64,000 nucleotides of DNA from an uncultured Armatimonadetes bacterium (GTDB lineage: Bacteria > Armatimonadota > UBA5829 > DTJY01): NCBI GenBank assembly GCA_963717145.1, contig OY970325.1, forward strand, positions 5,219,248 to 5,283,247, given 5' to 3'. The notes under the pieces are model-generated. The model worked only from the letters and a program-made list of their open reading frames with translations. It made no database searches and had not been told where the DNA came from. The translations under genes were made by a program, and so were the position numbers. Below are positions 529 through 52,870 of this stretch, piece by piece. How positions within the stretch are numbered: the stretch's first letter is position 1; every line of letters begins with the position of its first letter.

Positions 529-2499
529 ATGGGGGGAGGAGAGACGCCGGGAGGATGCCACGGTCTGTCGCTCAGGGGCGTGATCGTCGGGCTCGTCATG
601 GTGGTCGTGATATGCCTGCTGGTCTCCTACGCCGAACTGGTCACCGCCGTCATCCTCGTCGGCTCGCAGCAGATGCCGCCCGCGGTCGTCGCCGTGTTCA
701 TGGTGATCGTGCTGATGAACGCGGGATTGAGCCGCCTGAAGAGGAGCCTCGGTCTCAGTCCCGCCGACCTCGTGACGGTCTACTGCATGATGCTGATCGC
801 CGCCATGATCTCCGCCAGGGGGATCGTCGAGAAGCTGCTGACGATGCTGGTGACCGCCAACTACTTCGCCGACCCGACGAACCGCTGGCAGGAGCTGTTC
901 TTCCCGCACATCAAGAAGTGGCTGGTCGCGTTCGATCCCGCCGGCGATCCGAAGCAGTTCGTGGCCACGCGCTTCTTCGAGGGACTCAGGGCGGGGGAGC
1001 ATATCCCATGGGGCTTGTGGATCGTCCCGCTCGCGGCGTGGGGAGCGCTCTGCCTGATGGTGCTCTTCGCATTCCTCTGTCTCGCCTCGATCCTCAGGCG
1101 GCAGTGGGTCGATAACGAGAAGCTCCCGTTCCCGCTCGTCCAGCCGTCGCTCGAACTGATCCGCGACTCGGTCACCGGCGGCTCGGTTCTGCGCAACAAG
1201 CCGCTCTGGATCGGGTTCAGCCTGCCGGTCGTGGTGTACGCGATCAACGGACTGCACAACTGGTATCCCAACCTCCCGATGATGCCGGTCGCGCAGAGCC
1301 TCGACTTCTTCACGAGCCCGCCCTGGAACGCCTGGGGTGGGGCGCGGATGTACTTCTCCTTCGCGGCGATCGGGTTCTGCTTCCTGCTGCCGATGGAGAT
1401 GCTCTTCTCGCTCTGGTTCTTCTACATGTTCTCGAAGCTGCAGGCGGTCATCGCGACGTCGTTCGGCATGGAGATGCAGGGCATGCCGATGTATCCGTGT
1501 AGCCAGATGATCGGCTATCAGACCGCGGGCGCATACATCGTGCTGGCGATCTACATGCTCTACACCGCGCGTCCGCACCTCAAGCGAGTCCTCCGCGCCG
1601 CGATGGGCAGGGAGCAGGTCGATGACTCGCGGGAACTGATGCCGTGTCGGACGGCGGTCTGGGGGCTCGCGCTCTCCTTCGTGCTGATCGTGGCGTGGTG
1701 CTGTCTCGCGGGGATGTCGCTCTGGGTCGCGGTCGGGCTGATGGGCATCTTCATCTTCGTGGTGGCGCTCGTGATGACCCGAGCCACCGCCGAGGCGGGC
1801 CTATTCATGACGGAGGTGTCGTGGCGGCCGATCGACCTCTATCGGATGTTCGCGCCGGTCAGCGCGCTCGGTCCGGCGAACATCACGATGCTCACGTTCA
1901 TGGACGCGGGCTTCATGCGCGATCAGCGGGGACTCGTGCTGACCGGGATCATGGACGCGCTCAAGATGACGGACAGCGCGAAGATCCGCAGCCGATCGTT
2001 CCTTCCCGGCCTGATCGCGGCGATCGTTCTGGCGCTCCTGGTGGCGGGCGCGGCACACGTCTGGCTGCCATACAAGTTCGCGGGGCTGACGATGTACTGG
2101 TATCCGTATCGCGGGAACAACCTGTGGGCGATGTGGGACTACCAGGGGCACATCACCGGGATGACGCGCGATCTGGGACGGCAGGCGTCGGCGTTCTTCG
2201 GGGTCGGGGTGGTGGTCACGATCCTGCTCTCGTACATGCGGGCGGCGTTCTACTGGTGGCCGCTTCATCCACTCGGGTACGCGCTCTGCGGCTCGTGGAG
2301 CATGGTCGTCCTGTGGTTCTCATGCGCGTTCGTATGGATCGTGAAGGGCTTCCTGTTGCGCTACGGGGGGATGCGCATGTATATTAGGGCGAGGCCGGTG
2401 TTCATCGGGATGATGCTCGGGGAGTTCTTCATGGCGGCGCTCTGGACGCTCATCAGCGCGACGACCGGCGCGCCCGTCCCGGAGTTCCCCTGGCCGTAA
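529..2499 (+). CDS. Large polytopic membrane protein, paralog 1 of a three-member family in this window
   Basis: ORF 343-2499 has many hydrophobic helices. Shared motifs with the ORFs at 25793 and 50822 include ILRRQWVDNEKLPFP, WFFY, FHPLGYAL and LRYGG. Start is uncertain (Met at 436 or 529). Confidence 0.6.
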   Translation: MGGGETPGGCHGLSLRGVIVGLVMVVVICLLVSYAELVTAVILVGSQQMPPAVVAVFMVIVLMNAGLSRLKRSLGLSPADLVTVYCMMLIAAMISARGIVEKLLTMLVTANYFADPTNRWQELFFPHIKKWLVAFDPAGDPKQFVATRFFEGLRAGEHIPWGLWIVPLAAWGALCLMVLFAFLCLASILRRQWVDNEKLPFPLVQPSLELIRDSVTGGSVLRNKPLWIGFSLPVVVYAINGLHNWYPNLPMMPVAQSLDFFTSPPWNAWGGARMYFSFAAIGFCFLLPMEMLFSLWFFYMFSKLQAVIATSFGMEMQGMPMYPCSQMIGYQTAGAYIVLAIYMLYTARPHLKRVLRAAMGREQVDDSRELMPCRTAVWGLALSFVLIVAWCCLAGMSLWVAVGLMGIFIFVVALVMTRATAEAGLFMTEVSWRPIDLYRMFAPVSALGPANITMLTFMDAGFMRDQRGLVLTGIMDALKMTDSAKIRSRSFLPGLIAAIVLALLVAGAAHVWLPYKFAGLTMYWYPYRGNNLWAMWDYQGHITGMTRDLGRQASAFFGVGVVVTILLSYMRAAFYWWPLHPLGYALCGSWSMVVLWFSCAFVWIVKGFLLRYGGMRMYIRARPVFIGMMLGEFFMAALWTLISATTGAPVPEFPWP

Positions 2500-2530
2500 A
2501 AAGTAGGGAACGTGCCGCCGTGCCGTTCCG

Positions 2531-2810
2531 CAGCCAAGATGTCCCCCTTACGAAGGGGGACCGGCCTCTGGGCCGAGGGGGTTTCCGCGTGTGGGTGCGC
2601 ATACAAACCTCCCCCGGCCTGCTGGCCGGCCCCTCCTTCGTAAGGAGGGGCGCAGACGGCTTCCGGGCCGAGGGGGTTGCCGCGCGCGGGTCCACGAAAC
2701 GGAACCGCCAAGACGCCAAGGACGCCAAGCGAACCTCCCCCGGCCTGCTGGCCGGCCCCTCCTTCGTAAGGAGGGGCGCAGACGGCCTGCTGGCCGAGGA
2801 GGTTTCAACA
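2531..2810. repeat. Cluster of three REP-like hairpin elements (family A: GGCCGGCCCCTCCTTCGTAAGGAGGGGC plus GAAACCTCCCCCGGCCTGCTGGCC)
   Basis: Near-identical copies at 2609-2680 and 2734-2810, plus a variant at 2531-2592. The same element occurs in inverted orientation at 7258-7309 and 7715-7770. Confidence 0.8.
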
Positions 2811-4960
2811 TGCGACAGATCGACTACAAGACATATCTCGACAAAGTGTACGGATGCTGGATCGGCAAGTGCGTCGCCGGCACGATCGGCGCTCCCTATG
2901 AAGGCGCGAAGGAGCTGTTCGACTTCGAGTACGACCCGAAGCTGATCGAGAAGATGCTCCCGAACGACGACCTCGACCTCCAGGTGCTCTGGCTGTCCGT
3001 CTTGGAAGAGAAAGGGATCGCCTTCACCTCCGACGACCTCGCCGATGCGTTCCTCAACAGGTGCAAGTACGCGCCCGGGGAGTACGCCTTCTTCAAGAAG
3101 AACTATGCCAGAGGCATCCATCCGCCGCTGAGTGGCGCGTACAACAACCGCTACTACATCGAGGGAATGGGCTGCCCGATCCGCTCCGAGGTATGGGCCT
3201 GCATCGCTCCCGGCAACCCGCAACTCGCCGCCGAACTCGCGGCGAAGGACGGGGTGCTCGATCACGCGGGGAACTCGGTCTACGCCGAGCAGTTCCTCGC
3301 CGCACTCGAGGCCGCCGCGTTCTTCGAGAGCGACATCGGGAAGCTCGTCGAGATCGGACTCAGTGTGATCCCCGAGGACTCGAAGATCGCCGGCCTGATC
3401 CGCGACGTCCGCGACTGGTGCCAGCTTGTGGGAGACGACTCGGGAGCGACTGTAGGGGCGTGCCTTGTGCCGCCTGTGACCGTCGACCAGGCGGCACAAG
3501 GCACGCCCCTACAGTCGCCTGTGACCGTCGACCAGGCGGCACAAGGCACGCCCCTACAGTCGCCTGCCGTAAGTGAGGACACCGGCGCTCCGGACTGGCG
3601 GTATGTCCGAAGCCAAATCCTGCGGAAGTACGGCCATCCGGACTGCACGAACATGTACCAGAACATGGGGATCACGCTCCTGGCGCTCTTCCTGGGAAGG
3701 GACTTCCTCGACACGACCATGATGGCGCTCAACTGCGGGTTCGACACCGACTGCACCTGCGCGACCGCCGGCTCGGTGCTCGGCATCATCCAGGGCGCGG
3801 AGTACCTGAGCACGACGCACGAGTTCCCCGAGCAGCGCTTCAAGCTCGGAGTCGATGCGCCTCGCCGATCCGACCGCGTCCTCGATCTGGCCGAGGATAC
3901 GTGCCTGATGGGCCTCCATTTCGCCGAGTACTTGAACAGGGATGTGGCGATCATTGACGCGCCGAAGCCGCCTCAAATCGAGCGGCCGGAGTACGAAACG
4001 GTCAAGGTCTCGATCGATTACCAGGGAGTCCCGGCGATGGGCATCGGTGAGACGCGAAAGATCAAGATTCTGTTTGACAACGAGCGCGTCAGCCCAGTCG
4101 GGATAGCGGTCTCCCTGACCGTCCCTGATGGCTGGGACGTATCCCCGACCTCCGCCGATCTGCTTCTCGATCCCGGCGTCAACTCCTGGGAGATCGAGGT
4201 GACCGTTCCGGCGGATATTCCGGTGCTGGATGAGCGGAACATGTTCGAGTTGGGATTCGATTCTTCCGCCGAGAGACCGGAAACCCCTCCCCAGCCCTCC
4301 CCGCAACGGAGAGGGAATCGCACTCTCTGCCCCCTCTCCGTTGCGGGGAGGGCTGGGGAGGGGTTTCCGGCTCGCTACCCATTCGGCATCGTCGGGGCGT
4401 CGGTGTGGGAAGTCTTCGGTCCATTCTGGCAGAACATCGGGCTCATCTCAGAGGGTACCAAGGACGAGATGGCGGATGTCGGCCGGATATACCACCTCAA
4501 CACGCGCGTCGATCCCGACCGGGAGTACATGACGCTCGACGAGATTCTCGGGCCGAAGATCACCGGCGACGCGGCGAAGGAAGGGCAGGTCGTCTGCTTC
4601 GGCGAGGACCTGATGTCGATGTCGGACGCGGTCGGATTCCAGGGGCCGTGCGCGGTGTATATGGTGCGGCGGATGATCTCGCCGGAGGACCGAACGCTCG
4701 GGGTGCTCGTCGGCCATACGGACGCGTACAAGCTGTGGATCAATGGGGAACTGATCAGCCGGCGGGACGACGTCGATTGGTGGACCGCCGAGAACGCGCA
4801 CATCCACGGGGTGAAGATCAACAAGGGCGAGAACATGATCGTCCTGCAGATGATCCGGCGCAGTTCCGAGGCGAAACTGAGCATCCTCTTCGTGAAGCGC
4901 GGCTCATGCTCCGAGCACTACTACGACTTCGCGTCGGTGAACCCGCGGCTCAGGGAGTAA
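2810..4960 (+). CDS. ADP-ribosylglycohydrolase family protein with a C-terminal beta-rich extension. Carries in-frame palindromic insertions.
   Basis: N-terminal GCWIGKCVAGTIGAPYEG and later GFDTDCTCATAGSVLG match the two conserved ADP-ribosylglycohydrolase metal-binding motifs. The caller ORF began at 2591 inside REP repeats. RBS-spaced ATG at 2810 (MRQIDYK). Confidence 0.6.
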   Translation: MRQIDYKTYLDKVYGCWIGKCVAGTIGAPYEGAKELFDFEYDPKLIEKMLPNDDLDLQVLWLSVLEEKGIAFTSDDLADAFLNRCKYAPGEYAFFKKNYARGIHPPLSGAYNNRYYIEGMGCPIRSEVWACIAPGNPQLAAELAAKDGVLDHAGNSVYAEQFLAALEAAAFFESDIGKLVEIGLSVIPEDSKIAGLIRDVRDWCQLVGDDSGATVGACLVPPVTVDQAAQGTPLQSPVTVDQAAQGTPLQSPAVSEDTGAPDWRYVRSQILRKYGHPDCTNMYQNMGITLLALFLGRDFLDTTMMALNCGFDTDCTCATAGSVLGIIQGAEYLSTTHEFPEQRFKLGVDAPRRSDRVLDLAEDTCLMGLHFAEYLNRDVAIIDAPKPPQIERPEYETVKVSIDYQGVPAMGIGETRKIKILFDNERVSPVGIAVSLTVPDGWDVSPTSADLLLDPGVNSWEIEVTVPADIPVLDERNMFELGFDSSAERPETPPQPSPQRRGNRTLCPLSVAGRAGEGFPARYPFGIVGASVWEVFGPFWQNIGLISEGTKDEMADVGRIYHLNTRVDPDREYMTLDEILGPKITGDAAKEGQVVCFGEDLMSMSDAVGFQGPCAVYMVRRMISPEDRTLGVLVGHTDAYKLWINGELISRRDDVDWWTAENAHIHGVKINKGENMIVLQMIRRSSEAKLSILFVKRGSCSEHYYDFASVNPRLRE
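3452..3557. repeat. Two tandem copies of the family B palindromic element (GTAGGGGCGTGCCTTGTGCCGCC ... GGCGGCACAAGGCACGCCCCTAC) inserted in frame in the CDS
   Basis: A 51-bp unit is duplicated in tandem. The frame is preserved and it translates to the repeated peptide PVTVDQAAQGTPLQS. Confidence 0.85.
4277..4370. repeat. About 94-bp perfect-arm palindrome (CCGGAAACCCCTCCCCAGCCCTCCCCGCAACGGAGAGGG ... CCCTCTCCGTTGCGGGGAGGGCTGGGGAGGGGTTTCCGG) inside the same CDS, in frame
   Basis: Inverted repeat read directly from the sequence. ORF 2591-4960 stays open across it. Confidence 0.8.
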
Positions 4961-10930: not shown

Positions 10931-12886
10931 ATGGTACGATTTGCCAGTCTTGTGGCCCGTGAGGGAAAGATATTGAAGACGACTGTTCTGCTGTCGGGCA
11001 ATGAGGCGATCGCCCGAGGCGCATATGAGGCCGGTGTTCGGGTCGCCGCGGGTTACCCCGGCACCCCGAGCACCGAGATACTTGAGAACATCACCCAGTA
11101 CGAGACGATCTACGCCGAGTGGTCGCCGAATGAGAAGGTTGCCCTCGAGGTCGCTCTCGGCGCTGCTCTCGGAGGCGCTCGGGCGCTCTGCACCATGAAG
11201 CACGTCGGCGTCAACGTCGCGTCCGACCCGCTGATGACCGCCTCGTACACCGGCATCAACCGTGGACTCGTGCTGGTGAGCGCCGACGACCCCGGCATGC
11301 ACAGCTCCCAGAACGAACAGGACAACCGTCACTACGCCCGGTTCGCCAAGATCCCGATGCTCGAACCGGCCGACAGCCAGGAGTGCAGGGACTTCACCAT
11401 CCGCGCCTTCGAGATCAGCGAAGCGTATGATACCCCGGTGCTGCTCCGAACGACCACCCGCGTGAACCACGGGAAATCGACCGTCAGCCTCTCTGAGCCG
11501 CAGGAGCCGGTCTTCGGCAGGTTTGAGTGCAACCTTCAGAAATACGTGATGATCCCCGCATACGCGATGAAGCGCCATGTGATCGTGGAGGAGCGGATGA
11601 TCCGCCTGAGGGAGTTGTCCAACGCCTCCGGTGTCGCCATTGCCCGTAGTGGCCGTGCCTCTGTGCCGGCCTCCGAGATCACTGGCCGGCACAGAGGCAC
11701 GGCCACTACGGGCAATGGCGACCTGCACCGCATCGAATGGGTCGACACGTCGATCGGCGTGATCACCTCGGGGATCGCATACCAGTACGTCAGGGAGGTG
11801 CTCCCGGAGGCGTCGGTACTGAAGCTCGGGATGACCTATCCGCTGCCCGACCGCCTGATCCGCGAGTTCGCGTCGAAGGTCGAGAAGCTGTACGTCGTCG
11901 AGGAACTCGATCCGTTCCTGGAGGATCAGATCAAGGCGCTCGGAATCGAGGTCATCGGCAAGGAGCGCTTCCCGATCATCGGCGAGCTGAACCCGAGGCT
12001 CGTCGCCGCTGGATTCGACTTGGGTAGGGGCGTGCCTTGTGCCGCCTGTGACGAGGTACCGGGCGGAGATGGACAGGCCACGGGCGGCACAAGGCACGCC
12101 CCTACAACCCAGCGGTTGGAGGGTGATATCCCCGGGCGGCCGCCGGTCCTCTGCCCGGGATGCCCTCACCGCGGGTTCTACCAGGTTCTGAAGAAGATGA
12201 AGGCCATCGTGACCGGCGACATCGGATGCTATACGCTCGGAGTGCTTCCGCCGCTCGAGGTAATGGACACCTGCATCTGCATGGGCGCATCGATCGGGAC
12301 CGCGCTCGGCATGAAGCGCGCTCAGTCGCCCGACGACAAGCGCCCGGTCGTGGCGGTGATCGGCGACTCAACTTTCGTCCACTCCGGGATCACCGGCCTG
12401 ATCGATGCCGTCTACAACGGCACGGCCGCGACGATATGCATCCTCGACAACTCCACGACCGCGATGACCGGCGGGCAGGAGCATCCGGCGTCGGGGAAGA
12501 CGCTCATGGGCAGTCCGGCGCCGAAGCTCGATCTGGCGGCCCTCGCACGTGCGATCGGTGTCGAGGACGTGCTGGTGGTCGATCCATACGATCTGGAGGC
12601 AGTCGAGAAGGCGCTCAGGTATGCGACCCGGACGGATAAGCCTTCGGTGATCATTACGAACAGGCCGTGCGTGCTGAGAGACAGGTCGGAGAAGCCGCCG
12701 AAGTCCTCCATCGCGCTGGAAATGTGTACCGGCTGCCAGGTGTGCTTCCGGATCGGATGCCCGGCGATGGAGTCGGTGGCGGTCGACGACAAGTTGCGCG
12801 CGCGGATCAACGCCAACCTGTGTCAGAGCTGTGGTGTCTGCATCCAGGTATGCCGCTTCGAGGCCATTGGGAGGCCGGAGGAATGA
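10931..12886 (+). CDS. iorA: Indolepyruvate:ferredoxin oxidoreductase alpha subunit, carrying two in-frame palindromic-element insertions
   Basis: N-terminal VLLSGNEAIARGAYEAGV and GYPGTPSTEI thiamine-pyrophosphate-enzyme motifs. C-terminal 4Fe-4S motifs CTGCQVCFRIGCP and CQSCGVCIQVC. 651 aa. Confidence 0.85.
   Translation: MVRFASLVAREGKILKTTVLLSGNEAIARGAYEAGVRVAAGYPGTPSTEILENITQYETIYAEWSPNEKVALEVALGAALGGARALCTMKHVGVNVASDPLMTASYTGINRGLVLVSADDPGMHSSQNEQDNRHYARFAKIPMLEPADSQECRDFTIRAFEISEAYDTPVLLRTTTRVNHGKSTVSLSEPQEPVFGRFECNLQKYVMIPAYAMKRHVIVEERMIRLRELSNASGVAIARSGRASVPASEITGRHRGTATTGNGDLHRIEWVDTSIGVITSGIAYQYVREVLPEASVLKLGMTYPLPDRLIREFASKVEKLYVVEELDPFLEDQIKALGIEVIGKERFPIIGELNPRLVAAGFDLGRGVPCAACDEVPGGDGQATGGTRHAPTTQRLEGDIPGRPPVLCPGCPHRGFYQVLKKMKAIVTGDIGCYTLGVLPPLEVMDTCICMGASIGTALGMKRAQSPDDKRPVVAVIGDSTFVHSGITGLIDAVYNGTAATICILDNSTTAMTGGQEHPASGKTLMGSPAPKLDLAALARAIGVEDVLVVDPYDLEAVEKALRYATRTDKPSVIITNRPCVLRDRSEKPPKSSIALEMCTGCQVCFRIGCPAMESVAVDDKLRARINANLCQSCGVCIQVCRFEAIGRPEE
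11636..11719. repeat. Family C palindromic element (GTAGTGGCCGTGCCTCTGTGCCGGCC ... GGCCGGCACAGAGGCACGGCCACTAC) inserted in frame within iorA
   Basis: Perfect inverted repeat. The frame is maintained and it translates to IARSGRASVPASEITGRHRGTATTGNG. Related copies at 24166-24230, 24326-24350 (half) and 50770-50800 (half). Confidence 0.85.
12024..12105. repeat. Family B palindromic element inserted in frame within iorA
   Basis: GTAGGGGCGTGCCTTGTGCCGCC ... GGCGGCACAAGGCACGCCCCTAC, translating to GRGVPCAACDEVPGGDGQATGGTRHAPT. Same family as 3452-3557, 25661-25721 and 54097-54155. Confidence 0.85.
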
Positions 12887-18944: not shown

Positions 18945-19811
18945 TCAGCACAGTTCCTGCAGTTCCTACTCTCAGGGGTGACAGTAGGCAGCATCTACGC
19001 GCTTACCGCAATCGGGTTCACGATCATCTATAACTGCACGCAGGTCGTCAACTTCGCGCAGGGTGAGTTCGTGATGCTCGGGGCGATGATCGCGGCGGTT
19101 CTCGTCGTGGCAGGTCACGTCTCGCTTCCCGTCGCATGTATTGCCGCGGTCGTCATAACCGGCATCGTCGGCTGGCTTATCGCATCTTCACTCCTCAGAC
19201 CGCTCAGGACCGGCTCCACGGTTACGCTCATCATCATCACCGTGGGCGCTTCGATCCTGTTTCGCGGAATCGCCATGCTGTTCTGGGGCAAGGATGCAAT
19301 GCCGCTGCCGGCGTTCTCCGGTGAGAACACGCTGCATTTCGGCGGCGCCTCGATGCAGCCCCAGAGCCTGTGGGTGCTGGCTGTCACGGCTGTGCTCGTG
19401 ATCCTCCTGAGGCTCTTCTATCAGTACACTCTGCTCGGTCGCGCGATGAGGGCCTGCGCATCCTGCAAGCCGGGCGCGAAGCTCGTCGGCATCAACACCA
19501 ACCGAATGACGATCCTGTCGTTCGTTCTTGGCGGGGCAGTCGGCGCGGTGGCCGGAGTCGTGATCGCTCCGATGACCATGGCCCAGTACGACATGGGCAC
19601 GATGCTCGGGCTGAAGGGGTTCTGTGCCGCAATCCTCGGCGGGCTGGGCAACTTCACGGGCGGCATCGTGGCCGGACTCGCACTCGGCATTCTGGAGGCG
19701 ATGGGCGCCGGTTTCATATCGAGTGGCTACAAGGATGCCATAGCCTTTGTGATCCTTCTCATCATCCTCTTTGCCCGCCCGCAAGGGGTCTTCGGCGGGA
19801 AGAAGGGATAG
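18945..19811 (+). CDS. Branched-chain amino acid ABC transporter permease (LivH-like)
   Basis: LQFLLSGVTVGSIYALTAIGFTIIYNCTQVVNFAQGEFVMLGAM is the canonical LivH N-terminus. TTG start at 18945 is likely. The caller Met at 18828 lies in the palindrome. Confidence 0.8.
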   Translation, partial: SAQFLQFLLSGVTVGSIYALTAIGFTIIYNCTQVVNFAQGEFVMLGAMIAAVLVVAGHVSLPVACIAAVVITGIVGWLIASSLLRPLRTGSTVTLIIITVGASILFRGIAMLFWGKDAMPLPAFSGENTLHFGGASMQPQSLWVLAVTAVLVILLRLFYQYTLLGRAMRACASCKPGAKLVGINTNRMTILSFVLGGAVGAVAGVVIAPMTMAQYDMGTMLGLKGFCAAILGGLGNFTGGIVAGLALGILEAMGAGFISSGYKDAIAFVILLIILFARPQGVFGGKKG

Positions 19812-19840
19812 ATAGCATCTGTTGGGTCTCTGTTGGGTCG

Positions 19841-19927
19841 GGAGTTGTACTCCCGAACCGGAGACTGGTTTGGCGGAGTTCAACTCCGCGTCGGTTCGGC
19901 GGGATGGAGTGCAACTCCATCCCGAAC
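19841..19927. repeat. Family D REP-like element (GGAGTTGTACTCC / GGAGTTCAACTCCG hairpins) in the livH-livM intercistronic region
   Basis: GGGAGTTGTACTCCCGAACCGGAGACTGGTTTGGCGGAGTTCAACTCCGCGTCGGTTCGGCGGGATGGAGTGCAACTCCATCCCG. Related copy at 36121-36228. Confidence 0.75.
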
Positions 19928-21334
19928 GGGGACGGTAGGCTTTCGACTTTGGACTTTCGACTTTCGACTAGACCTGCGATCCTGCGCCTGTTGCCGTTCA
20001 TCGCGCTCGTCGCAGCCATACTGGCGATACCGAACCTGGTATTCAAGCCGTCCGAAACGGGCGGCAACTACTACCTCACGGTTCTGATCTACGTCGGGAT
20101 CAACACGATCCTGGCGGTCGGACTGAACCTGCTCATGGGGTATGCGGGCCAGGTGTCGCTCGGTCACGCCGCCTTCTACGGTCTTGGCGCGTATGCGTCC
20201 GCCGTTCTGACGACCCGTGGCGTCCCTGCCGGTATCGTGGCCCCCGCAGCCGCCGTGATCGCCGTAATGGCGTCCGCCGCAGCGATCATCTCCATGCTTC
20301 GAGCCGAGTCCGGCAGGTTCTTGCTCTCGGTGGGCGGCTTCCTCCTTGCAGCAGTCTCCGCCGTCCACTTCGGACTCGCACACCCGGTGCCCTACATTCT
20401 GCTGGTCGCGGGCTGGATGGTTTCGTATGTTGCATACAGGATGTCGCCGATCAAACTGGCAGTCCCCTACGCCATCGGAGCGGTGGTCGGGCTCGTCACC
20501 TATTGGCTACTCGGACACGCCACGGGCGGCATGTCGCCCTGGTACGCGATGGCCGCCGGACTGGTCTTCACCTGCCTGATCGCGTATCTTATCGGCTCTC
20601 AGGCACTGAAGCTCCATGGACACTACCTGGCGATGGCGACTCTCGGCTTCGGCGTGATCATCGCCATCATCCTCGTGCAGTGGGAGCCGATGACGGGCGG
20701 CACATCGGGGATCTATGGCATTCCCAGCCTGCAACTCGGCAAGCTGGCCCTCGACAACGATATCTCCGTCTATTACCTGGTATGGGCGCTGGTTGCGGTA
20801 GTGATCGCGTTATCCGCCAACATCGTCAACTCGCGGATCGGGCGCGCGTTCCGAGCCGTGCACGGAAGCGAGGTTGCGGCGGCTTCTCTCGGGGTCGACG
20901 CGACTCGGTACAAGGTGCAGGTCTTCGTGCTGAGCGCCGCCCTGGCTTCGATCGCCGGCAGCATCTACGCTCATTACGTCACTTTCATCAGCCCCGAGCC
21001 GTTCGGGTTCAAGTTCTCGATCGAACTGGTGGTCATGGTGGTCATCGGGGGCTTGGCGAGCATCTGGGGCGCGGTGTTTGGGGCAGCGACGATAACAATC
21101 CTCGGCGAACTGCTGCGCGGGCTGGGAACGACCCAGACATTGGGCGCGGAGAAGGGCGTCTTTGCCCTGATCCGAGATAGACTCGGTGCTTCCCCCTCAG
21201 ATTTTGACGTGATCATTTTCGGCCTGATCCTGATGCTCATCATGATATACATGCCCAACGGCCTGCTCCGGACGATCGTCGACAGCGCGAAGTCTGCCAT
21301 CCGCCTGGCGCGGAGAAAGAAGGCGGTGGAGTGA
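19908..21334 (+). CDS. Branched-chain amino acid ABC transporter permease (LivM-like) with extra TM segments
   Basis: LLMGYAGQVSLGHAAFYGLGAYASAVL core motif. Start is uncertain because the first in-frame ATG lies inside the REP. Confidence 0.7.
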
Positions 21335-22128
21335 TGGAGACCTCAGCCGCTTTGGTCCAGGTGCGGAAGGCACGCAAGGTTTTCGGCGGACTCACAGCCG
21401 TCGATGATGTTACGTTCGACGTGGCGCTTGGGCAGTTGTTTGCGGTCATCGGGCCAAACGGAGCAGGGAAGAGCACCATGCTGAACCTGCTATCCGGCGT
21501 CCTCAAGCCGACGGACGGCGAGATCTTCTTCCGGCAGACCGCCACTTCGGGCCTCCCGCCATACGAGATCGCCGGCCTGGGGATCGCCAGGACGTTCCAG
21601 AATGTACAGCTCTTCCCGAACATGACCGTCCTCGAAAACGTCATGGTGGGACGGCATCTGCGCTCCAGTCAGGGACTCCTGGCGGCCGCGCTCCGTTTCC
21701 CCGGGCAGATCAGGGAAGAGCGGCGGATCCTCGAATCAGCGCTCGAGCGGCTGGACTCGGTCGGGCTCGCGGACAAGCGCGAGGACTCCGCCTCGAGCTT
21801 GTCGTTCGGACAGCAGCGGCTCCTCGAGATCGCCCGCGCGCTCGCGCCTGAGCCGAAGATGCTTCTGCTGGACGAGCCGGCATCCGGTCTCAGTTCCCAT
21901 GAGACCGAGACGCTCGCGGATTACCTCCTGCGAATCGTCGCCGAGGGGATCACAGTCATCCTCGTGGACCACGACATGCAGTTCGTGATGGACATATCCG
22001 ACCACGTTGTAGTGCTCGACCACGGGCAGAAGATCGCCGAGGGAACGCCGACGGAGGTGCAGGCCGATCGGAAGGTCATCGCCGCATACCTGGGAGAGGA
22101 GGTCCACGGTCATGCTAAGACTGACTAG
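21331..22128 (+). CDS. ABC transporter ATP-binding protein (LivG-like)
   Basis: Walker A GPNGAGKST, signature LSFGQQRLLEIARAL, Walker B LLLDEPASG. ATGA overlap with livM. Confidence 0.85.
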   Translation: MMETSAALVQVRKARKVFGGLTAVDDVTFDVALGQLFAVIGPNGAGKSTMLNLLSGVLKPTDGEIFFRQTATSGLPPYEIAGLGIARTFQNVQLFPNMTVLENVMVGRHLRSSQGLLAAALRFPGQIREERRILESALERLDSVGLADKREDSASSLSFGQQRLLEIARALAPEPKMLLLDEPASGLSSHETETLADYLLRIVAEGITVILVDHDMQFVMDISDHVVVLDHGQKIAEGTPTEVQADRKVIAAYLGEEVHGHAKTD

Positions 22129-25792: not shown

Positions 25793-27783
25793 ATGGCAGT
25801 CGAACCCTACGATCCGCGACTCTTATCCGCAGCAGACACCGCGACCGAGCACGAATCCGCCCAGGCCGATCCTTCGACAGGCTCAGGAGGCATCACCTGG
25901 CGCGCGCTCCTGATCGGGTTCATCGCCATCATCCCCGGCGTCTTCTGGGGCGTCTACGGCGATGTCGTCTCCCAGACCGACCTGACCTCGACCTCGCTGA
26001 TGATGCCGCCGGTCCTCATCCTGATGGCGCTCCTCGTCCTCAACGGCATCGTCAGGCGCATCAGGCCGATATGGGTGCTCGGCCGCACGGAGTTGATCAC
26101 CATCTACGCGATGCTTACCGTCTCCGTGATCCTCTCCGGCATGGGGATGCTCCAGTTCCTGATGACATCCCTCGGCGCGGTCCCGCACTTTGCCACCCCC
26201 GAGAACGGATGGGGCGCTTACCTCAACATGGTCCCGCACTGGATCATGCCGAAGCTCTCCGCCATCGACGGCTTCTACGTCGGCAACAAGCCGATCCCCT
26301 GGTCTGCGTGGACGAACCCGATCCTCCTGTGGAGCGGATTCCTCTTCGCGATGCTCTTCTGCATGATGTGCATCAACACGATCCTCCGCAAGCAGTGGAT
26401 CGAGCGGGAACGGCTCACATATCCCATAGTCCAACTTCCGCTGGAGATGACCGACCCGAAGAGCCGGTTCTTCTCGAACAGGCTGATGTGGGCAGGGTTC
26501 TTCACCGCCGCCGCACTCGAGACGCTGAACAGCCTCGCGTTCCTCTATCCGAATGTTCCCCAGGTGCAGTTGCGGGCGTTCGACCTTCAGCCGTTCTTCA
26601 GCACCGCGCCGTGGAATGGGGTGGGGTACTTCCCGACGACCTTCTACCCGCTCGCCATCGGACTCGGGTTCGTGCTCGCGACCGACGTGAGCTTCTCGTG
26701 CTGGTTCTTCTACCTCGTGACCAAGGTGGAGGGAGTCCTCACCTCAGCGCTCGGCTGGACGGGTGGGGCGGGCGCGATGAGCGCTCCGCCGTATCTCGCC
26801 CAGCAGAGCGTCGGCGGGTTTATCGGCATCGGCGTCGTGGTGATCTACCTCGCGAGGAATCACCTCAGGGACGTCTTCGCGAAGGTCTTCACCCGCGACT
26901 CCGGCGTTGACGATTCCGAAGAGCCGATGAGCTATCGGATGGCGGTCTTCGGGCTGGGGCTCGGATTCCTCATCATGGTGATATTCTGCGTGGCGGTCGG
27001 CGTCTCTCCGGCTGTGGGGATCGCGTATCTCGGCCTCTACATGCTCTTCGCCACGACGATCAGCCGACTCCGCGCCGAAGCCGGGCCTGCATGGGTGATG
27101 GGCCCGGGTGGGACGCGCTCGACAGCCTCACCCGCCCGATCGGGACCGGGGCATTCAGCGGGGGAAACCTCGTCGCGCTCGCCTACTTCCACTGGTTCAG
27201 CATCGAGATGAGGTGCTGTCCGATGGGCGTGCAGGCCGAGGGGATGAAGATGGCGCAGGCGACCCGAACGAAGCAGCGGGTGATGACGATCGTTCTCCTC
27301 GCGGCGATGGTCATCGGGATCGCGGTCGGATTCTGGGCGTGCCTCGCGGTATGGTACAAGTTCGGCGCGGGGACGGCGAAGGTCGAGCCGTGGCGCACCG
27401 GTATGGGCGCGGCGCCATTCGACCGGGTCACGGACTACATGCAGAACCCGCAGAGGGCCGATGTCGCGGGCATCCTGGCGATCGTCTTCGGCACGGGGTT
27501 CACGTTCCTGCTCAGTCTGATGCGGAGCCGGTTCGTATGGTTTCCGCTCCATCCGGCGGGATACGTGCTCGCGAACACCGGCACGATGTACTGGCTCTGG
27601 TGTCCGTTCCTGCTGGCGTGGATCATCAAGGTCCTGATCATCCGCTACGGCGGGATCAAGGGCTACCGGACCGCGCTCCCATTCTTCCTCGGCCTCGTCC
27701 TCGGCGACTACATAGCCTCGAGCCTCTGGGCCCTCGCGGGCTCCGTTCTCGGCATCACCATGTACCGCTGCTTCCCCTGCTGA
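25793..27783 (+). CDS. Large polytopic membrane protein, paralog 2 (reading frame shifts around 27090-27210)
   Basis: ORF 25793-27211 continues in ORF 27091-27783. Together they align end to end with paralogs 1 and 3 (ILRKQWIERERLTYP, WFFY, FPLHPAGYVL, IRYGG). Confidence 0.55.
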
Positions 27784-27845
27784 TTTCATACTAGTACTCG
27801 TGCTCGTAATCGTACTCGTAATCGCGGTCTTGGGGTTGTCGCGCG

Positions 27846-28298
27846 CTAAGCAGTAGTGGCGACGATCTCCGACGGGGTGATCGCGGTGATCTCGGGGTAT
27901 CGAGCGAAGTCGGAGGGATTCAGGGTCACCAGATGAGTGATGCCGTGCGCCATCATGAAGGCGACTATCCGTGCATCGTGGGCCTTCTTGCCGAGGACGG
28001 AGTATGACTGGACTACCGTCCGCCAACGAGCCGCCATGTCTTCAGGCTCAGGCAGACAAGGAAAGAGTATCTCGATCTCGTCCATGTGGCCGTCGGCCTT
28101 CTCGAGGTCGAACCCCAGTCCATTCACATCCAGCGGCCTGGTAGCCACAACCCAGGATTCTATCAGCACCTGAGCACACACATGGCAAGGCACACCCGAC
28201 TTGCGAAGGGAATCCAGCGCCGCTACGATCTCAGGGTTGCTCGGATCGCTCAGTTCGAAGAACCTGAGGAGCACGTTGGTGTCGATCAGGAAGGTCAC
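27846..28298 (-). CDS. vapC: Type II toxin, PIN-domain ribonuclease (VapC-like)
   Basis: MTFLIDTNVLL start with the conserved acidic residues of the PIN fold. 150 aa. 4-nt overlap with the upstream antitoxin gene. Confidence 0.8.
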   Translation of the reverse strand: MTFLIDTNVLLRFFELSDPSNPEIVAALDSLRKSGVPCHVCAQVLIESWVVATRPLDVNGLGFDLEKADGHMDEIEILFPCLPEPEDMAARWRTVVQSYSVLGKKAHDARIVAFMMAHGITHLVTLNPSDFARYPEITAITPSEIVATTA

Positions 28299-28528
28299 AG
28301 CCGGTCCTCATACATATTCTCACGCCTGAGGGCCTCATCGGGGATGCGGACGCCGGATACCCGCCCGGCAAGGAGTCTCCGCCAGGCTGCATCTTTTGAC
28401 GAAGTGCGCCGACGCTGAGGCTTCTCAACCGCGAGTTGGATTACCAGCGACTGGTTGATCGGCAGGTCCACCGGATCGTCGGGAACGATGGTCTTGCCAT
28501 CATAATGCGCGCGGATTCTCATTGCCAT
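28295..28528 (-). CDS. vapB: Type II antitoxin (VapB-like, DUF104-like small beta protein)
   Basis: MAMRIRAHYDGKTIVPDDPVDLPINQSLVIQLA resembles the DUF104 antitoxin pattern. Translationally coupled to vapC. Confidence 0.55.
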   Translation of the reverse strand: MAMRIRAHYDGKTIVPDDPVDLPINQSLVIQLAVEKPQRRRTSSKDAAWRRLLAGRVSGVRIPDEALRRENMYEDRL

Positions 28529-28560
28529 GGGATTCACCTCGCAAGCATTATACCACATCG

Positions 28561-28800
28561 GCTCTGCATCGGTCGGGATACGTGTTGGTGAACACCGGCA
28601 CGATGTACTGGCTCTGGTGTCCGTTCATGGTGGCATGGTTCGTCAAGGTCCTGATCATCCGCTACGGCGGGATCAAGGGCTACCGGACCGCGCTCCCGTT
28701 CTTCCTCGGGCTCGTCCTCGGCGACTACATCGCCTCATCCCTCTGGGCCCTCGCGGGCTCCGTCCTCGGCATCACGATGTACCGCTGCTTCCCGTGCTGA
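28561..28800 (+). pseudogene. Duplicated 3' fragment (last 80 codons) of the paralog 2 membrane-protein gene. It forms a direct repeat with 27541-27783.
   Basis: About 230 bp nearly identical to 27545-27783. Both encode YVLxNTGTMYWLWCPF...IRYGGIKGYRTALPFFLGLVLGDYIASSLWALAGSVLGITMYRCFPC and stop. Confidence 0.7.
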
Positions 28801-29034
28801 TGGTCGATGGTTGATGGTTGATGGGGAAACGTCAGCCCTGAGTGTGCTGGTGAATGACGTCGTGTATAGAAGGGCGGGCCACCGAAGGGAGGACATTCCG
28901 ACGACCGCTGACGGGCAGTTCCCGCTAGTTGTGCCTGCCCCCCGTTTCTTGTCCCTCATTTCTGTCCGGTGAAGGAACTCCTCGGCATAAAGATGAATGC
29001 TCTAATCACTAGCTAACCCGCAGAGGTAGGGCGC

Positions 29035-32000: not shown

Positions 32001-32228
32001 TTCGACGAACTGCCAGATTTGTCATGGCTAGATGAGCCGATGTCGGGCAAGCTGGACGCGCTTATCTATGACCAGCGGCAGCATCTGCGAACGGTCCGTG
32101 TATTGCGTCTATACCTGGATAATGTGCTGCTGCTGATCAAGCCTGACAGGTTGCGGTATTGGATCAGATCTACGGCCATTCGTGATGCAGATGAAACATT
32201 GCTTCACCTACAGGAGTGGGGTTACTAG
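29035..32228 (+). CDS. HNH nuclease fused to a PglX/MmeI-like gamma-class N6-adenine DNA methyltransferase with a C-terminal specificity region. Two caller ORFs are joined across an apparent 1-nt frameshift at about 30200-30240.
   Basis: HNH at residues 25-70: CSIPRCGSTSVLEIHHIDEDASNHDSTNLLVLCSICH. The helical linker (LLLMVLIKYLEDRRVFPEG, FDGDIFAL) and ISLDQFSFEYLPVEIISHLYQRFV continue in frame 0 upstream of the caller GTG start at 30276. Methyltransferase motif I is VLDPACGSGVFLV and motif IV is VVLGNPPFV. Local GC is clearly below the flanking sequence. Confidence 0.65.
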
Positions 32229-32230
32229 TC

Positions 32231-32971
32231 ATGAACAGCGGTTATCCCTACTCAGCGCCAATCGGGAGGATCACAGCGGGTATTGAGCTGGGCACACTCG
32301 CTAACAAGATTATCGATTTCGTTCGCCAGCAGCTGCCAGCATGGAGGGACCACCCCGACCGTGATGATGTCCAGTCGGAGTTCCGCCTAACCTCCCAACT
32401 CTGTGTATTCCTCAATGCCAGGGCGCGCCAGGCTCGCTTCTCTATGATCCAGTTCCATCACGAGCTACCGCAGCCCCGGAGTCGAAGCGTCGATCTATCA
32501 GTACATCCGTTGGATCCCCTGCAGATCGATGCCCGACTCTTCTCAGTATTTCACCCAGTTCTGGTGTTAGAGTGCAAGCGACTTCCCCCTCCAGATCCAA
32601 AACGCGAGAGGGAGTATGTGACAGGCGATGCGAACAAGCGGAGCGGCGGCATACAACGTTTCAAATTGGGTTTGCATGGTTCTGACACCGATGTCGCGGG
32701 TATGATTGGATTTCTCCAGGAGGCCACCGCTCCACATTGGCATAGCACAATCAACGGATGGATTCTTGAGCTATGCAACGGCACTCCGGCCGATGGATGT
32801 ACTTGGAGCAGTGACGAGGTTCTATCGGAGATCGATTGCAGTGTTTCCGGTGGCGTTACCAGCTACTGCTCAGTTCACTCGAGGACTTCCTCAAGATCAG
32901 GCCAGCCTATCACCATCCATCATGTGTGGGTTGCGATGAACCAGCTACAGGGTGCTTGTAGAACGAGTTGA
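32231..32971 (+). CDS. PD-(D/E)xK-like nuclease-fold protein, translationally coupled to the methyltransferase gene
   Basis: Stop TAG at 32226-32228 and ATG at 32231. Possible nuclease motif SVDLSVHP ... PVLVLECKRL (D ... E-x-K). Confidence 0.45.
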   Translation: MNSGYPYSAPIGRITAGIELGTLANKIIDFVRQQLPAWRDHPDRDDVQSEFRLTSQLCVFLNARARQARFSMIQFHHELPQPRSRSVDLSVHPLDPLQIDARLFSVFHPVLVLECKRLPPPDPKREREYVTGDANKRSGGIQRFKLGLHGSDTDVAGMIGFLQEATAPHWHSTINGWILELCNGTPADGCTWSSDEVLSEIDCSVSGGVTSYCSVHSRTSSRSGQPITIHHVWVAMNQLQGACRTS

Positions 32972-47620: not shown

Positions 47621-49105
47621 ATGAATGTCGATGACAACCTGAAGCTCTTCTACGAGAAGCTGAAGGAGATGTACAATCTGCAGTGCATCGAGGCGCTGCT
47701 CGGATGGGACCACCAGGTCTACATGCCGCCGCAGAGCGCCCAGGCCCGGGCCGACCAGCAGGAGTATATCTCGTGCCTCGCCCACCAGCGGGCGACCGAC
47801 CCTGAGTTCTGTCGGGTGGTGGATGAACTCGCCGAGGCGCGTGAGAGCCTCTCGGAAATCGATCAGGTGAACGTTCGTGAGATCAAGAGAGGACTCGACA
47901 TCGAGCGGAAGCTCCCCGAGGATTTCGTGGCGGAATTCGCGCAGGCCTCCTCGACCGGTTACAGCATTTGGGCAGAGGCGCGCCCGAAGAACGATTGGTA
48001 TGCCGTCGAGCCGGTCCTGGAGAGGATCTTCCAGTTATCGAAGCGCAGGGCGGATCTCGTCGGCTACGAGGAGCATCCCTACGACGCGCTACTCGACATC
48101 TTCGAGCCCGGCATGAGGCTCTCACAGGTCAAGCCGCTCCTCCTTGATCTGGCCGACCAACTCAAGCAGATGATCCCACCGATCGCCGAGAGATTCAGCG
48201 GCGAGGGAAAGCTCAAGGGCCACTTCGATAAGGACTGCCAACACCGGTTTGTATCCAAGGTCGCGAGCGATCTCGGCTTCGACTTCCAACAGGGACGGCT
48301 CGATACGACCGCGCATCCCTTCATGACGTCCATCGGCCCGCATGACTTCCGGATCACGACTCGCTACAACGAGGGCAACTTGCTCGCCGGGCTGTACGGA
48401 ACTATGCACGAAACCGGCCACGCCCTCTACGAGATGGGCCTCCCGAAGGAGCGCGCCGGCACTCCGAGGGGTGAATCGGTGTCCCTCGGGATCCACGAGT
48501 CGCAATCGCGGTTCTGGGAGAACCTAGTCGGCCGGTCCCGCGAGTTCTGTGGGCACCTGATCGGAGTAATGAGGGAGTTCTTCCCGGAGCAGACCGGTGC
48601 ATTGACCTGCGACGACCTGTGGAAGCGCGTGAACCAGGTCGAGCCGAGCCTCATCCGCGTCGAAGCGGACGAGGTCACGTACAACCAGCACATCGTGATC
48701 CGCATGCTCCTGGAGGAGCGCCTTATCACCGGCGACCTGAGCGTATCCGATCTCCCCGGCGCGTGGGATGACCTCTACGAGGAGTACCTGGGCGTCCGAT
48801 CGCCCGACGCGAAGGACGGCGTGATGCAGGACATGCACTGGTACACCGGCGGGGTCGGCTACTTCCCGACGTATTCGCTCGGGAACCTCTACGGCGCTAT
48901 GATGATGCAGACGGCCCGTGAGGCGCTCCCGGATATGCCGCGTCAGATCGAGCGCGGGGAGTTCGCACCACTACTCGCCTGGCTGAGGACGAACGTCCAC
49001 CAATACGGCATGACGTTTCGCGCCGCCGACCTGATTCGCCATATCACCGGGCACGACCTCAGCGATCAGCCGTTTGTCGAGTATCTGAGAGCCAAGTTCA
49101 TGTAG
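47621..49105 (+). CDS. M32 family carboxypeptidase (carboxypeptidase Taq-like)
   Basis: HETGHALYEMG zinc-binding HExxH in M32-typical context. 494 aa. Confidence 0.8.
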   Translation: MNVDDNLKLFYEKLKEMYNLQCIEALLGWDHQVYMPPQSAQARADQQEYISCLAHQRATDPEFCRVVDELAEARESLSEIDQVNVREIKRGLDIERKLPEDFVAEFAQASSTGYSIWAEARPKNDWYAVEPVLERIFQLSKRRADLVGYEEHPYDALLDIFEPGMRLSQVKPLLLDLADQLKQMIPPIAERFSGEGKLKGHFDKDCQHRFVSKVASDLGFDFQQGRLDTTAHPFMTSIGPHDFRITTRYNEGNLLAGLYGTMHETGHALYEMGLPKERAGTPRGESVSLGIHESQSRFWENLVGRSREFCGHLIGVMREFFPEQTGALTCDDLWKRVNQVEPSLIRVEADEVTYNQHIVIRMLLEERLITGDLSVSDLPGAWDDLYEEYLGVRSPDAKDGVMQDMHWYTGGVGYFPTYSLGNLYGAMMMQTAREALPDMPRQIERGEFAPLLAWLRTNVHQYGMTFRAADLIRHITGHDLSDQPFVEYLRAKFM

Positions 49106-50462: not shown

Positions 50463-50638
50463 CTACTCATACTCATACTCATACTCATACTCATACTCAA
50501 TCCGGGGCGAAGCATTGGCGATTCTGTCCCGAAGTCGGCGCAGTCCGAAGGGCCAATGCTTCGCCCCTACATCCTGGGCGGAGAACTGGCGATTCTGTCC
50601 CGAAGTCGGTACAGTCCGATTGGCCGATGTTTCGCCCC
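50463..50638. repeat. (ATACTC)6 microsatellite followed by two tandem copies of an about 65-bp palindrome
   Basis: CCGGGGCGAAGCATTGGCGATTCTGTCCCGAAGTCGGCGCAGTCCGAAGGGCCAATGCTTCGCCCCTAC, then a variant copy. Confidence 0.8.
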
Positions 50639-50890
50639 TACACCCGGAGATGTCTGGTCTAGCGCAGCTTTCTTCTGCGGCAACTACGGTATATATACCG
50701 TGCTGTACTTGCCGCATAGTGCGGTAAGTCGCGCACTCCCCCAGGACGTGCCGTTGCCGCCGTCCCGCCGGATGGCCGGCACGGAGGCACGGCCACTACG
50801 GTTTTCGTCGCACCGGCCTGCTTGTCCTGCGAGGCAGGGAAACGGATGGTTTACAATCCCGGGCGCTTTCCACTATCATTGTCCCACGCA

Positions 50891-52870
50891 ATGAACACCC
50901 CGACAGCACCCGGAACCGATACGGCAACACGATACGACCGCGTCACACCGCGCGCGGTGATCCTGTCGCTCATCCTTGCGGTCATCAACGACTACTGGCT
51001 TGTCCAGATCGAGGTCGTGCGCTACTCCTTCGCCACCTATGCCGCGCCGTTCTACAACTGCATCTTCACCCTCCTGGTCGTCACGGCGGCGAGCTTCCTT
51101 GTCAAGCGGCGATTCCCGCGGCTCGCGCTCAGCCGGGTCGAGCTGATAACCGTCTACGTCATGCTCTCGATCACCAGCGCCGTCTGCTCCCACAACATGA
51201 TGGAGGTGCTCGTCTCGCTGATGGGCTACGCGTTCTTCTTCCAGACGCCGGAGAACGGGTGGGGCAAGCTCTTCATCGACAAGATTCCGAAGTGGCTGAC
51301 TGTAAGTGACCCGGAGAGCCTGAAGCACTTCTATTACGGGCACTCCACGCTCTACGATCCGGTCAACTACACTCCGTGGATCGTGCCGGTGCTCTCGTGG
51401 TCGGCGTTCTCGGCAGTCCTGCTCTTCACCATGCTGTGCATCAACAGCATCCTCCGCAAGCAGTGGGTCGAGGCCGAGCGGCTGACCTTCCCGTGTATCA
51501 TGCTCCCCCTCGAGATGACCGAAGAATCCGGCTCGCTCTTCCGAAACCGCTACATGTGGATGGGGTTCGCCATCGCCGGTTTCCTCACGTTTCTGGCCGG
51601 CCTCAACTATCTCTATCCATCGATCCCCTGCGTTCGGATCGTGCGCCAGAACTTCGGGCAGTACATCGTGAACCCACCGTGGAATGCGATCGGCGCGATC
51701 ATCGTCGGCTTCTACTTCTGGGCGATCGGGATCGCGTTCCTGATGCCGCTCGAGCTTTCGTTCTCATGCTGGTTCTTCTACTGGGTCGTCAAGATGGAGA
51801 TAGTCGGCACGCGGATCCTGGGCCTTAACGAGCTGAATGTCGTCGGCGGGAGCTTCGACCGGACCTATCCGTTCCTGATCTCGCAGTCCTACGGCGGGTA
51901 CCTCGGCTTCTTCGCGATGAGCATGTGGTCGAGCCGCCGCTACCTCAGGCGCGTCTTCCGGACCGCCTTCCTCGGCACGAAGGAGGAGGACGAGTCCCGG
52001 GAGGCCCTGAGTTACCGATCGGCGATCCTCGGCCTGATCGGAGGACTGCTGTTCCTGGGCACATTCGCCTACCGAATGGGCATGTCGATCCCGATCATCA
52101 TCGCATTCTTCGTGCTCTATCTGACATTCGCGATCATCATCAGCCGCATCCGGGCCGAACTCGGCTTCCCGACTCACGATATGCACCAGATGAACCCACC
52201 GTACCCCATCACGACGGCTTTGGGCACGGAGAACATCGACGCGCAGAACCTGGTCGGCTTCTCGCTGTTCTACTGGTTCAACCGCACCTACGCGAGCCAT
52301 CCGTCACCGCACCAGTTGGAGGCGTTCAAGCTGTCGGAGCGAGTCGGCAATCCCGCGAGGCAGATGTTCTTCGCCGTCATGATCGCCGGCATCTTCGCGC
52401 TCCCGATCGGATTCTGGAAGCTCCTGCACACGTACTACCACAACGGCGGCGCGACGGCCAACATGGAGATGTGGGCGCTCACGTTCGGAAGCGAGGCTTG
52501 GAACAGGCTCGGCACGTGGATCAAGCAGCCGACCCAGCCGAGCGTGCTCTCGCTCGGGTTCGTTGGCGTCGGGTTCGCGATTTCGACGATCCTCGCGTGG
52601 CTGAGAATGCGGTTCTTCTGGTTCCCATTCCATCCGCTCGCGTATGCCCTCGGCCCGAGTTGGGGGATCGCGCAACTCTGGATGCCGATCTTCATCGGGA
52701 GCACCGCCAAATTCCTCGTGCTGCGGTTCGGGGGACTCAAGCAGTACCGGAAGGCGATCCCTTTCTTCTTCGGGCTGATCCTCGGCGAGATCACGGTCGG
52801 AAGCCTCTGGACGATCATCGGGATCGTGCTCGGCATCCCGACCTACGACTTCTGGCCGGGGAAGATGTAG
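50891..52870 (+). CDS. Large polytopic membrane protein, paralog 3
   Basis: ILRKQWVEAERLTFP, WFFYWVV, FPFHPLAYAL and LRFGG motifs shared with paralogs 1 and 2. 660 aa. Confidence 0.6.
   Translation: MNTPTAPGTDTATRYDRVTPRAVILSLILAVINDYWLVQIEVVRYSFATYAAPFYNCIFTLLVVTAASFLVKRRFPRLALSRVELITVYVMLSITSAVCSHNMMEVLVSLMGYAFFFQTPENGWGKLFIDKIPKWLTVSDPESLKHFYYGHSTLYDPVNYTPWIVPVLSWSAFSAVLLFTMLCINSILRKQWVEAERLTFPCIMLPLEMTEESGSLFRNRYMWMGFAIAGFLTFLAGLNYLYPSIPCVRIVRQNFGQYIVNPPWNAIGAIIVGFYFWAIGIAFLMPLELSFSCWFFYWVVKMEIVGTRILGLNELNVVGGSFDRTYPFLISQSYGGYLGFFAMSMWSSRRYLRRVFRTAFLGTKEEDESREALSYRSAILGLIGGLLFLGTFAYRMGMSIPIIIAFFVLYLTFAIIISRIRAELGFPTHDMHQMNPPYPITTALGTENIDAQNLVGFSLFYWFNRTYASHPSPHQLEAFKLSERVGNPARQMFFAVMIAGIFALPIGFWKLLHTYYHNGGATANMEMWALTFGSEAWNRLGTWIKQPTQPSVLSLGFVGVGFAISTILAWLRMRFFWFPFHPLAYALGPSWGIAQLWMPIFIGSTAKFLVLRFGGLKQYRKAIPFFFGLILGEITVGSLWTIIGIVLGIPTYDFWPGKM

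Follow-up and report, generated by a model that had tools for sequence, protein, structure and literature searches.

Three genes for related polytopic membrane proteins are spread over a 64-kb stretch of DNA from an uncultured Armatimonadetes bacterium (hereafter "the window", meaning this whole stretch, which has a G+C content of ~62%). All three lie on the plus strand, copy 1 at positions 529..2499, copy 2 at 25793..27783 and copy 3 at 50891..52870. A first reading of the sequence (the original prediction) held them to be of unknown kind, with no transporter signature. We report here that the proteins carry the Pfam domains DUF6785 and DUF6784, that structural models of two copies match only barley Yellow Stripe 1 (HvYS1), and that two homologues pass the threshold of the Pfam oligopeptide transporter (OPT) family. 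The three copies are ancient paralogues of a family that is probably a strongly diverged bacterial branch of the OPT/YSL superfamily (Transporter Classification (TC) 2.A.67), and most likely serve as proton-coupled secondary importers. The original prediction had named assignment to a known transporter family by profile search as the outcome that would speak against it, and this is largely what was found; the best reading, that of divergent secondary transporters with an OPT/Yellow-Stripe fold, supersedes the earlier view.

Copies 1 and 3 are intact genes, coding for DUF6785+DUF6784 proteins of 656 and 659 amino acids (aa) with a predicted OPT/YSL-like fold; copy 1 is 100% identical to database protein P0121, and copy 3 is identical to P0241. 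The copy 2 gene, which has the same two domains, is split by a 1-nucleotide (nt) frameshift at ~27100-27112. Of the three paralogous ~700-aa proteins first proposed, the paralogy therefore stands, while the size comes down to ~660 aa, and only copies 1 and 3 are open reading frames (ORFs) as listed, copy 2 consisting of two ORFs in different frames. BLASTP identity is 29% between copies 1 and 2, 29% between copies 1 and 3, and 35% between copies 2 and 3, with expectation values (E) of 1e-82 to 1e-133, far beyond chance. The sequence motifs quoted in the original prediction were all recovered, collinear, in copies 1-3 (ILR[KR]QW..E[RK]L.[FY]P, WFFY, [WF]P.HP..Y.L, R[YF]GG and LG[ED]).

The DUF6785 model (PF20581; gathering score 25 bits) is matched by copy 1 with 504 bits (E 4.9e-151), by copy 3 with 514 bits (E 5.7e-154), and by copy 2 with 434 bits in its first ORF plus 63 bits in its second; over the three copies, the E-values range from about 1e-130 to 1e-154. 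The C-terminal DUF6784 model (PF20580; gathering score 26.4 bits) gives 102, 119 and 116 bits for copies 1, 2 and 3, respectively (E 1.7e-29 for copy 1 and 8.4e-34 for copy 3). Both models are matched end to end by copies 1-3 and by all retrieved homologues, for which NCBI uses the name "DUF6785 family protein". Judged by these profile matches, the three window proteins are members of an already catalogued Pfam family to which no function is assigned. A scan of the window proteins against NCBIfam gave no match.

The family is large. Word-indexed searches, at the E-value cut-offs used, retrieved 2,100 relatives with copy 3, 389 with copy 1 and 463 with copy 2, and a HMMER scan with a family profile returned 7,649 clusters at 50% identity with E<=1e-3 (2,856 with E<=1e-30). 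Nearly all named matches come from Armatimonadota (including Chthonomonadales and Capsulimonadaceae) and Poribacteria, where several family copies per genome are usual, often close together. For example, 80 loci (+/-8 kb) hold 92 family ORFs; two of the loci (L003 and L008) lie on the same contig ~10 kb apart, and in another (L001) a second copy is found 2 kb from the first. P0121 and P0241 come from a single NCBI/ENA contig of 5,366,867 bp, and P0120, another family member, from one of equal length; the source genome therefore probably contains at least a fourth paralogue.

Identity to the best outside matches (60% for copy 1, 80-90% for copy 2 and 95% for copy 3) exceeds the 29-35% found between the copies, and members of different paralogue lines occur together within single metagenome-assembled genomes (locus-tag prefixes QHH26, Q7T82 and IT209). 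Because outside orthologues are closer than the window paralogues, and single genomes hold different lines, the modest identity is rightly ascribed to old duplication with retention. Alignment identities thus place each copy in its own widely conserved orthologue group.

Predicted fold and competing explanations

AlphaFold2 models were built for copy 3 from a 53-sequence alignment (predicted local distance difference test, pLDDT, 89.1; predicted template modelling score, pTM, 0.89) and for copy 1 from a different, 62-sequence alignment (pLDDT 93.8; pTM 0.93), in both cases with no templates. In a Foldseek search of the PDB, the copy 3 model had only two significant matches, both to HvYS1 (7wst_A and 7wsr_A). 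That to 7wst_A extends over the full length, with 683 aligned columns (E 2.9e-7, probability 1.00, template modelling (TM) scores 0.67/0.73). HvYS1 was likewise the only significant match of the copy 1 model (7wsr_A, E 2.7e-9, probability 1.00, TM 0.63/0.68). The next PDB folds had TM scores <0.17, and no other fold reached E<=0.001. A GT-C-type glycosyltransferase, an APC/LeuT-fold transporter and a membrane pyrophosphatase were considered as candidates and rejected, these folds having TM <0.2 with both copies. The predicted secondary structure comprises roughly 14-16 long hydrophobic helices together with short or discontinuous ones, by a hydropathy count that is crude, and the ~660-aa size and polytopic, all-helical build fit OPT proteins (PMC3061005).

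A second line of evidence comes from two close homologues of copy 3, P0068 (67% identical) and P0106 (63% identical), which pass the Pfam OPT model (PF03169; gathering score 25.8 bits) with 31.8 bits (E 8e-8) and 35.6 bits (E 6e-9), respectively. In both proteins, residues ~340-616 of the C-terminal half are collinear with OPT profile positions 316-597 of 623. These matches suggest a thin but real sequence link between the family and OPT. Since the window proteins are without an OPT profile match while their models match HvYS1, we place them in the OPT/YSL superfamily at the level of the predicted fold, and not in the Pfam family PF03169.

Several results weigh against this assignment and the importer function attached to it. 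PF03169 does not match copy 1 or copy 3 even at E<=10, nor any of 75 diverse family representatives (0/75) at E<=0.01. A sequence search of the PDB with copy 3, the 53-sequence profile and P0106 returned nothing relevant. The NPG and KIPPR motifs are absent from copies 1-3, and among 75 relatives NPG is found in 3 and KIPPR in none; alignment of the N-terminal with the C-terminal half by hhalign gave no internal sequence repeat (probability 0.2). The superposition on HvYS1 has a root-mean-square deviation of 6.7-7.1 A at a sequence identity of 12-14%. The neighbours of the family genes offer no help either. They were analysed in four ways: 44 window proteins were compared with the 80 loci by tblastn, 864 neighbouring ORFs were clustered de novo, the same-strand genes next to family members were scanned with Pfam, and six individual contexts were inspected. 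No partner was conserved across lineages in the 80 loci, shared neighbours reflecting only the synteny of close relatives, and these analyses turned up no conserved regulator that would point to a substrate. Neither a riboswitch nor any other RNA family was detected when the whole window was scanned with Rfam. In a full-text literature search for DUF6785 and DUF6784, no paper mentioned either.

The large deviation and low identity, together with the fact that the models are predictions, could mean that the match to HvYS1 is an artefact of generic helical-bundle likeness or of training-data bias. We consider this highly improbable: two paralogues that are 29% identical, modelled from different alignments and with no templates, have the same single match (probability 1.00, TM 0.63-0.73), all other polytopic transporters have TM <0.2, and the PF03169 matches of the homologues are independent sequence evidence. 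The same observations bear on the view of the original prediction, namely a novel polytopic family outside all known classes of transporters and enzymes. That the window proteins match no named Pfam or NCBIfam family beyond the two DUFs, and have no sequence relative in the PDB, would suit such a family. However, two high-confidence models with a unique, full-length match to HvYS1 and two close homologues above the Pfam OPT threshold largely refute it, and the family itself is already in Pfam and carries an NCBI name; there is very little chance that this view is correct.

A more serious competitor accepts the OPT/YSL-like fold but assigns it another role, such as that of an exporter, a flippase of lipid-linked or envelope precursors, or a membrane-embedded envelope enzyme or receptor. 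Apart from the missing substrate-related partner and the extreme divergence from characterised OPTs (the 12-14% identity of the structural alignment), it can draw on the housekeeping-type contexts of copy 1 orthologues, which include HtrA-like proteases, a cold-shock protein, inositol monophosphatase, FtsEX/PcsB and S41 peptidases, and on a PGA_cap/CapA-like gene directly upstream in 13 poribacterial loci. The poribacterial synteny, however, comes from close relatives and is not independent evidence, and no catalytic-type motif or enzyme-family match was found in Pfam or NCBIfam. Moreover, characterised OPT members are all cation:solute uptake symporters (PMC3061005), and multi-copy expansion with variable catabolic neighbours is typical of nutrient uptake. 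A role other than import therefore appears unlikely, although less so than either an artefact or an unrelated family.

Proposed function and gene context

We infer transport activity, its direction, the coupling ion and the substrate class by analogy. Each protein would act as a stand-alone, cation-coupled (probably proton-coupled) secondary importer, in which a substrate-binding core domain would move elevator-like against a scaffold domain, as proposed for HvYS1. Neither an ATPase nor a binding protein would be needed, and the lack of an ATPase partner would be explained, because stand-alone secondary transporters need none. The three proteins would probably take up different small organic substrates, because each copy has a separately conserved orthologue group of its own. 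Near-invariant polar and aromatic residues of diverse members (N122, W124, W163, W170, R189, W192, E196, Q332, R376, R419, H581 and K607 in copy 3 numbering) may belong to the path taken by substrate and protons; E423, in the same numbering, is invariant in a narrower alignment (A2). A large family present in multiple copies in Armatimonadota and Poribacteria is as expected of nutrient transporters.

Family genes are usually monocistronic or stand beside catabolic enzymes. In other genomes, their tight same-strand neighbours are a mixed set in which small-molecule and carbohydrate enzymes are frequent; they include genes of the GH172/DUF2961, GH116-like (GH, glycoside hydrolase), DUF6259, DUF4380, NAGPA, enolase-superfamily and URO-D-like types, as well as a PfkB kinase, Gfo/Idh/MocA, a xylose-isomerase-like TIM barrel, PhyH dioxygenases and Laminin_G_3. 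In the window, copy 1 is followed after 92 nt by the gene for an ADP-ribosylglycohydrolase/NPCBM-associated protein (ORF 2591-4960). Upstream of copy 3, the end of an M32 carboxypeptidase gene (47621-49105) is 1.8 kb away; on the downstream side, a gene for a GH106 rhamnosidase begins after 3.2 kb. Some of the surroundings are kept among orthologues: those of copy 3 have HMGL-like and DinB-like genes upstream, as in the window, and those of copy 1 have cold-shock and inositol-monophosphatase genes downstream. Two copy 3 orthologues have sulfatase, GH2 or GH42 genes within 5 kb.

A glycan-derived substrate can only be hypothesized from such neighbours, because the phyla concerned are rich in carbohydrate enzymes. 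In its strongest form, which we regard as rather doubtful, the hypothesis holds that DUF6785/DUF6784 is a large, phylum-characteristic OPT branch of Armatimonadota and Poribacteria that has switched from peptides or metal chelates to, for example, glycosides, oligosaccharides or other glycan breakdown products, with at least three old and separately conserved paralogue lines serving different substrates. If true, two poorly cultured phyla of glycan degraders would possess a major uptake route that annotation has so far missed.

The statement that the genes are not adjacent to transporter ATPases is literally correct, but an ATP-binding cassette (ABC) system of the LivHM/LivG/LivF type (19370-22849) ends 2.9 kb before copy 2, the interval being occupied by the gene for a PaaK-like ligase and by an ORF that resembles outer-membrane proteins. 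A functional link between copy 2 and this Liv-type system was considered and rejected: the two intervening genes are unrelated, and the system is not conserved beside orthologues. The segment 19370-25556 codes in turn for a fused LivH/LivM-type permease (654 aa), LivG- and LivF-type ATPases, the PaaK-like phenylacetate-CoA ligase and a 406-aa ORF. With its signal-peptide-like N-terminus and C-terminal Phe, the latter resembles an outer-membrane beta-barrel, and it has no Pfam match. On the other side of the window, ~120 nt after copy 3, a gene at ~52990-54087 codes for a predicted secreted protein of 371 aa with a Met/Pro-rich N-terminal region. This gene has its own promoter-like site (52894-52922), its product belongs to no Pfam family, and no counterpart was seen beside the orthologues examined.

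Copy 2, its 3' flank and repeats of the window

The two reading frames of copy 2 are ORF 25793-27211 and ORF 27091-27783. In blastx comparisons with family members, the match runs in frame 1 until ~27085 and in frame 3 from ~27130; the first ORF covers positions 1-409 of the DUF6785 profile, and the second covers positions 415-498 and also matches DUF6784. Re-using one base in the G/C run GGGCCCGGGTGGG (27100-27112) restores a product of 663 aa, with which the intact 650-660-aa orthologues P0390-P0392 share 80-90% identity from end to end. Copy 2 would accordingly be either a very recent pseudogene or the victim of a homopolymer sequencing error and, as sequenced, is predicted to be inactive unless the frameshift is an assembly error. 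Farther downstream, ORFs 54185-55243 and 55008-55694, which overlap in different frames and have a high G+C content at third codon positions, resemble another frameshifted gene; a Pfam scan of ORF 54185-55243 gave no match. Taken with the copy 2 frameshift, this region hints at assembly indel errors or ongoing pseudogenisation. Within it, ARAGORN called an odd 100-nt tRNA-Ala(CGC) on the minus strand (54463-54562), which is probably spurious.

One copy had been described as the integration site of a vapBC element. A vapBC-like cassette does adjoin copy 2, but the gene is not interrupted by it: the cassette lies past the stop codon, between duplicated 3' ends, and the disruption of copy 2 is the separate frameshift. 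The cassette consists of a minus-strand gene for a vapC-like PIN-domain toxin (27846..28298; Pfam PIN, E 3.1e-9) and, also on the minus strand, a small ORF for 87 aa (28295..28558) that overlaps the start of the PIN gene by 4 nt. The small ORF is a putative antitoxin gene by its position, and matched no Pfam (antitoxin) family at E<=0.001. The duplicated ends form a direct repeat of 238 nt on the plus strand. Its left copy (27547..27784) is the working 3' end of copy 2, includes the stop codon and aligns with orthologues, while its right copy (28564..28801), 92% identical to the left, is an orphan remnant of a copy-2-type 3' end, in which ORF 28522-28800 translates to the same C-terminal peptide as copy 2. 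At 92% identity, the two repeat copies have diverged too far for a fresh target-site duplication; we infer from these sequences that a related genome is the more likely source of the cassette, which would have arrived along with a 3' gene fragment. An empty site could not be demonstrated, as the nearest orthologues (loci L087 and L089; 76-79% identity) have downstream flanks unrelated to the window.

The low-G+C stretch that abuts copy 2 extends from 27785 to 32300 (55% G+C at 28001-32000 versus ~62% elsewhere). It also contains an Eco57I/MmeI-type N6-adenine methylase split over the overlapping ORFs 29035-30288 and 30276-32228, which may be a frameshifted or a two-part type IIG/IIL restriction-modification enzyme. 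Together, the PIN pair, the orphan remnant and the methylase look like a small defence islet.

Repeats of other kinds were seen elsewhere in the window. A palindromic repeat resembling repetitive extragenic palindromic (REP) elements, TAGGGGCGTGCCTTGTGCCGCCCG, occurs nine times versus 0 expected, in inverted pairs, at 3453-3556, 12025-12104, 25662-25720 and 54098-54156. The ADP-ribosylglycohydrolase ORF 2591-4960 contains the cluster at 3453-3556 in frame, where it contributes ~35 residues between the limits of the Pfam domain (aa 88-404); the pair at 12025-12104 lies inside the long ORF 10931-12886. The intergenic region upstream of copy 3 (50465-50660) contains the hexanucleotide repeat (ACTCAT)x7 and, after it, a 70-nt direct repeat in two copies, GGCGATTCTGTCCCGAAGTCGG...CGCCCCTACA. 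In the spacer between copy 1 and the ADP-ribosylglycohydrolase gene, an element of ~100 nt is duplicated (2590-2810); in translation, the ORF shows it as a peptide that occurs repeatedly, PRPAGRPLLRKEGRRR.

Comparison with known transporters

The result is an annotation upgrade of a catalogued DUF family and not the discovery of a new kind of system. Even so, thousands of genes of Armatimonadota and Poribacteria that are now annotated as "hypothetical" or "DUF6785 family protein" would gain a testable function, and metabolic reconstructions of these phyla would gain a multi-copy uptake system. To our knowledge, HvYS1 is the only solved structure of the OPT family, and bacterial, easily expressed relatives would become available for a fold so far represented by this single structure from a plant.

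HvYS1 (TC 2.A.67; 7WSR/7WST) is also the known protein to which the window proteins are most alike, being their sole significant structural match, over the full length and at a similar size. Among its features are the proton sites Asp446/490/494 and, in the dimer, Cys250-Cys671. It works as a proton-coupled symporter; its core and scaffold domains are built from inverted repeats, and an elevator mechanism has been proposed for it (PMC9691689). The likeness does not extend to the cargo: YS1 carries Fe(III)-phytosiderophore, whereas nothing suggests a metal-chelate substrate for the window proteins.

The OPT oligopeptide transporters of PF03169 from prokaryotes, fungi and plants, such as ScOPT1/Hgt1 and Campylobacter CptA, are secondary transporters. 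They measure about 650-800 aa, and their transmembrane segments, about 16 in number, arose from internal duplication (PMC3061005). All characterised members take up peptides, glutathione or metal-chelates by cation:solute symport; those of prokaryotes are widespread but for the most part uncharacterised, and their genome context has pointed to peptides as substrates of many and to oligosaccharides for one subcluster (PMC3061005). According to Koh et al. (2002), as cited in PMC3061005, NPG and KIPPR are conserved in the OPT PT clade. The window proteins resemble these transporters through the C-terminal half of two copy 3 homologues, which scores above the OPT gathering threshold. On the contrary, the window copies are without NPG and KIPPR, none of the 75 relatives matches PF03169, and no repeat was detected at the sequence level. 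The family discussed here more often has carbohydrate-active than peptide-related enzymes as neighbours, although the M32 carboxypeptidase gene near copy 3 is of the latter sort.

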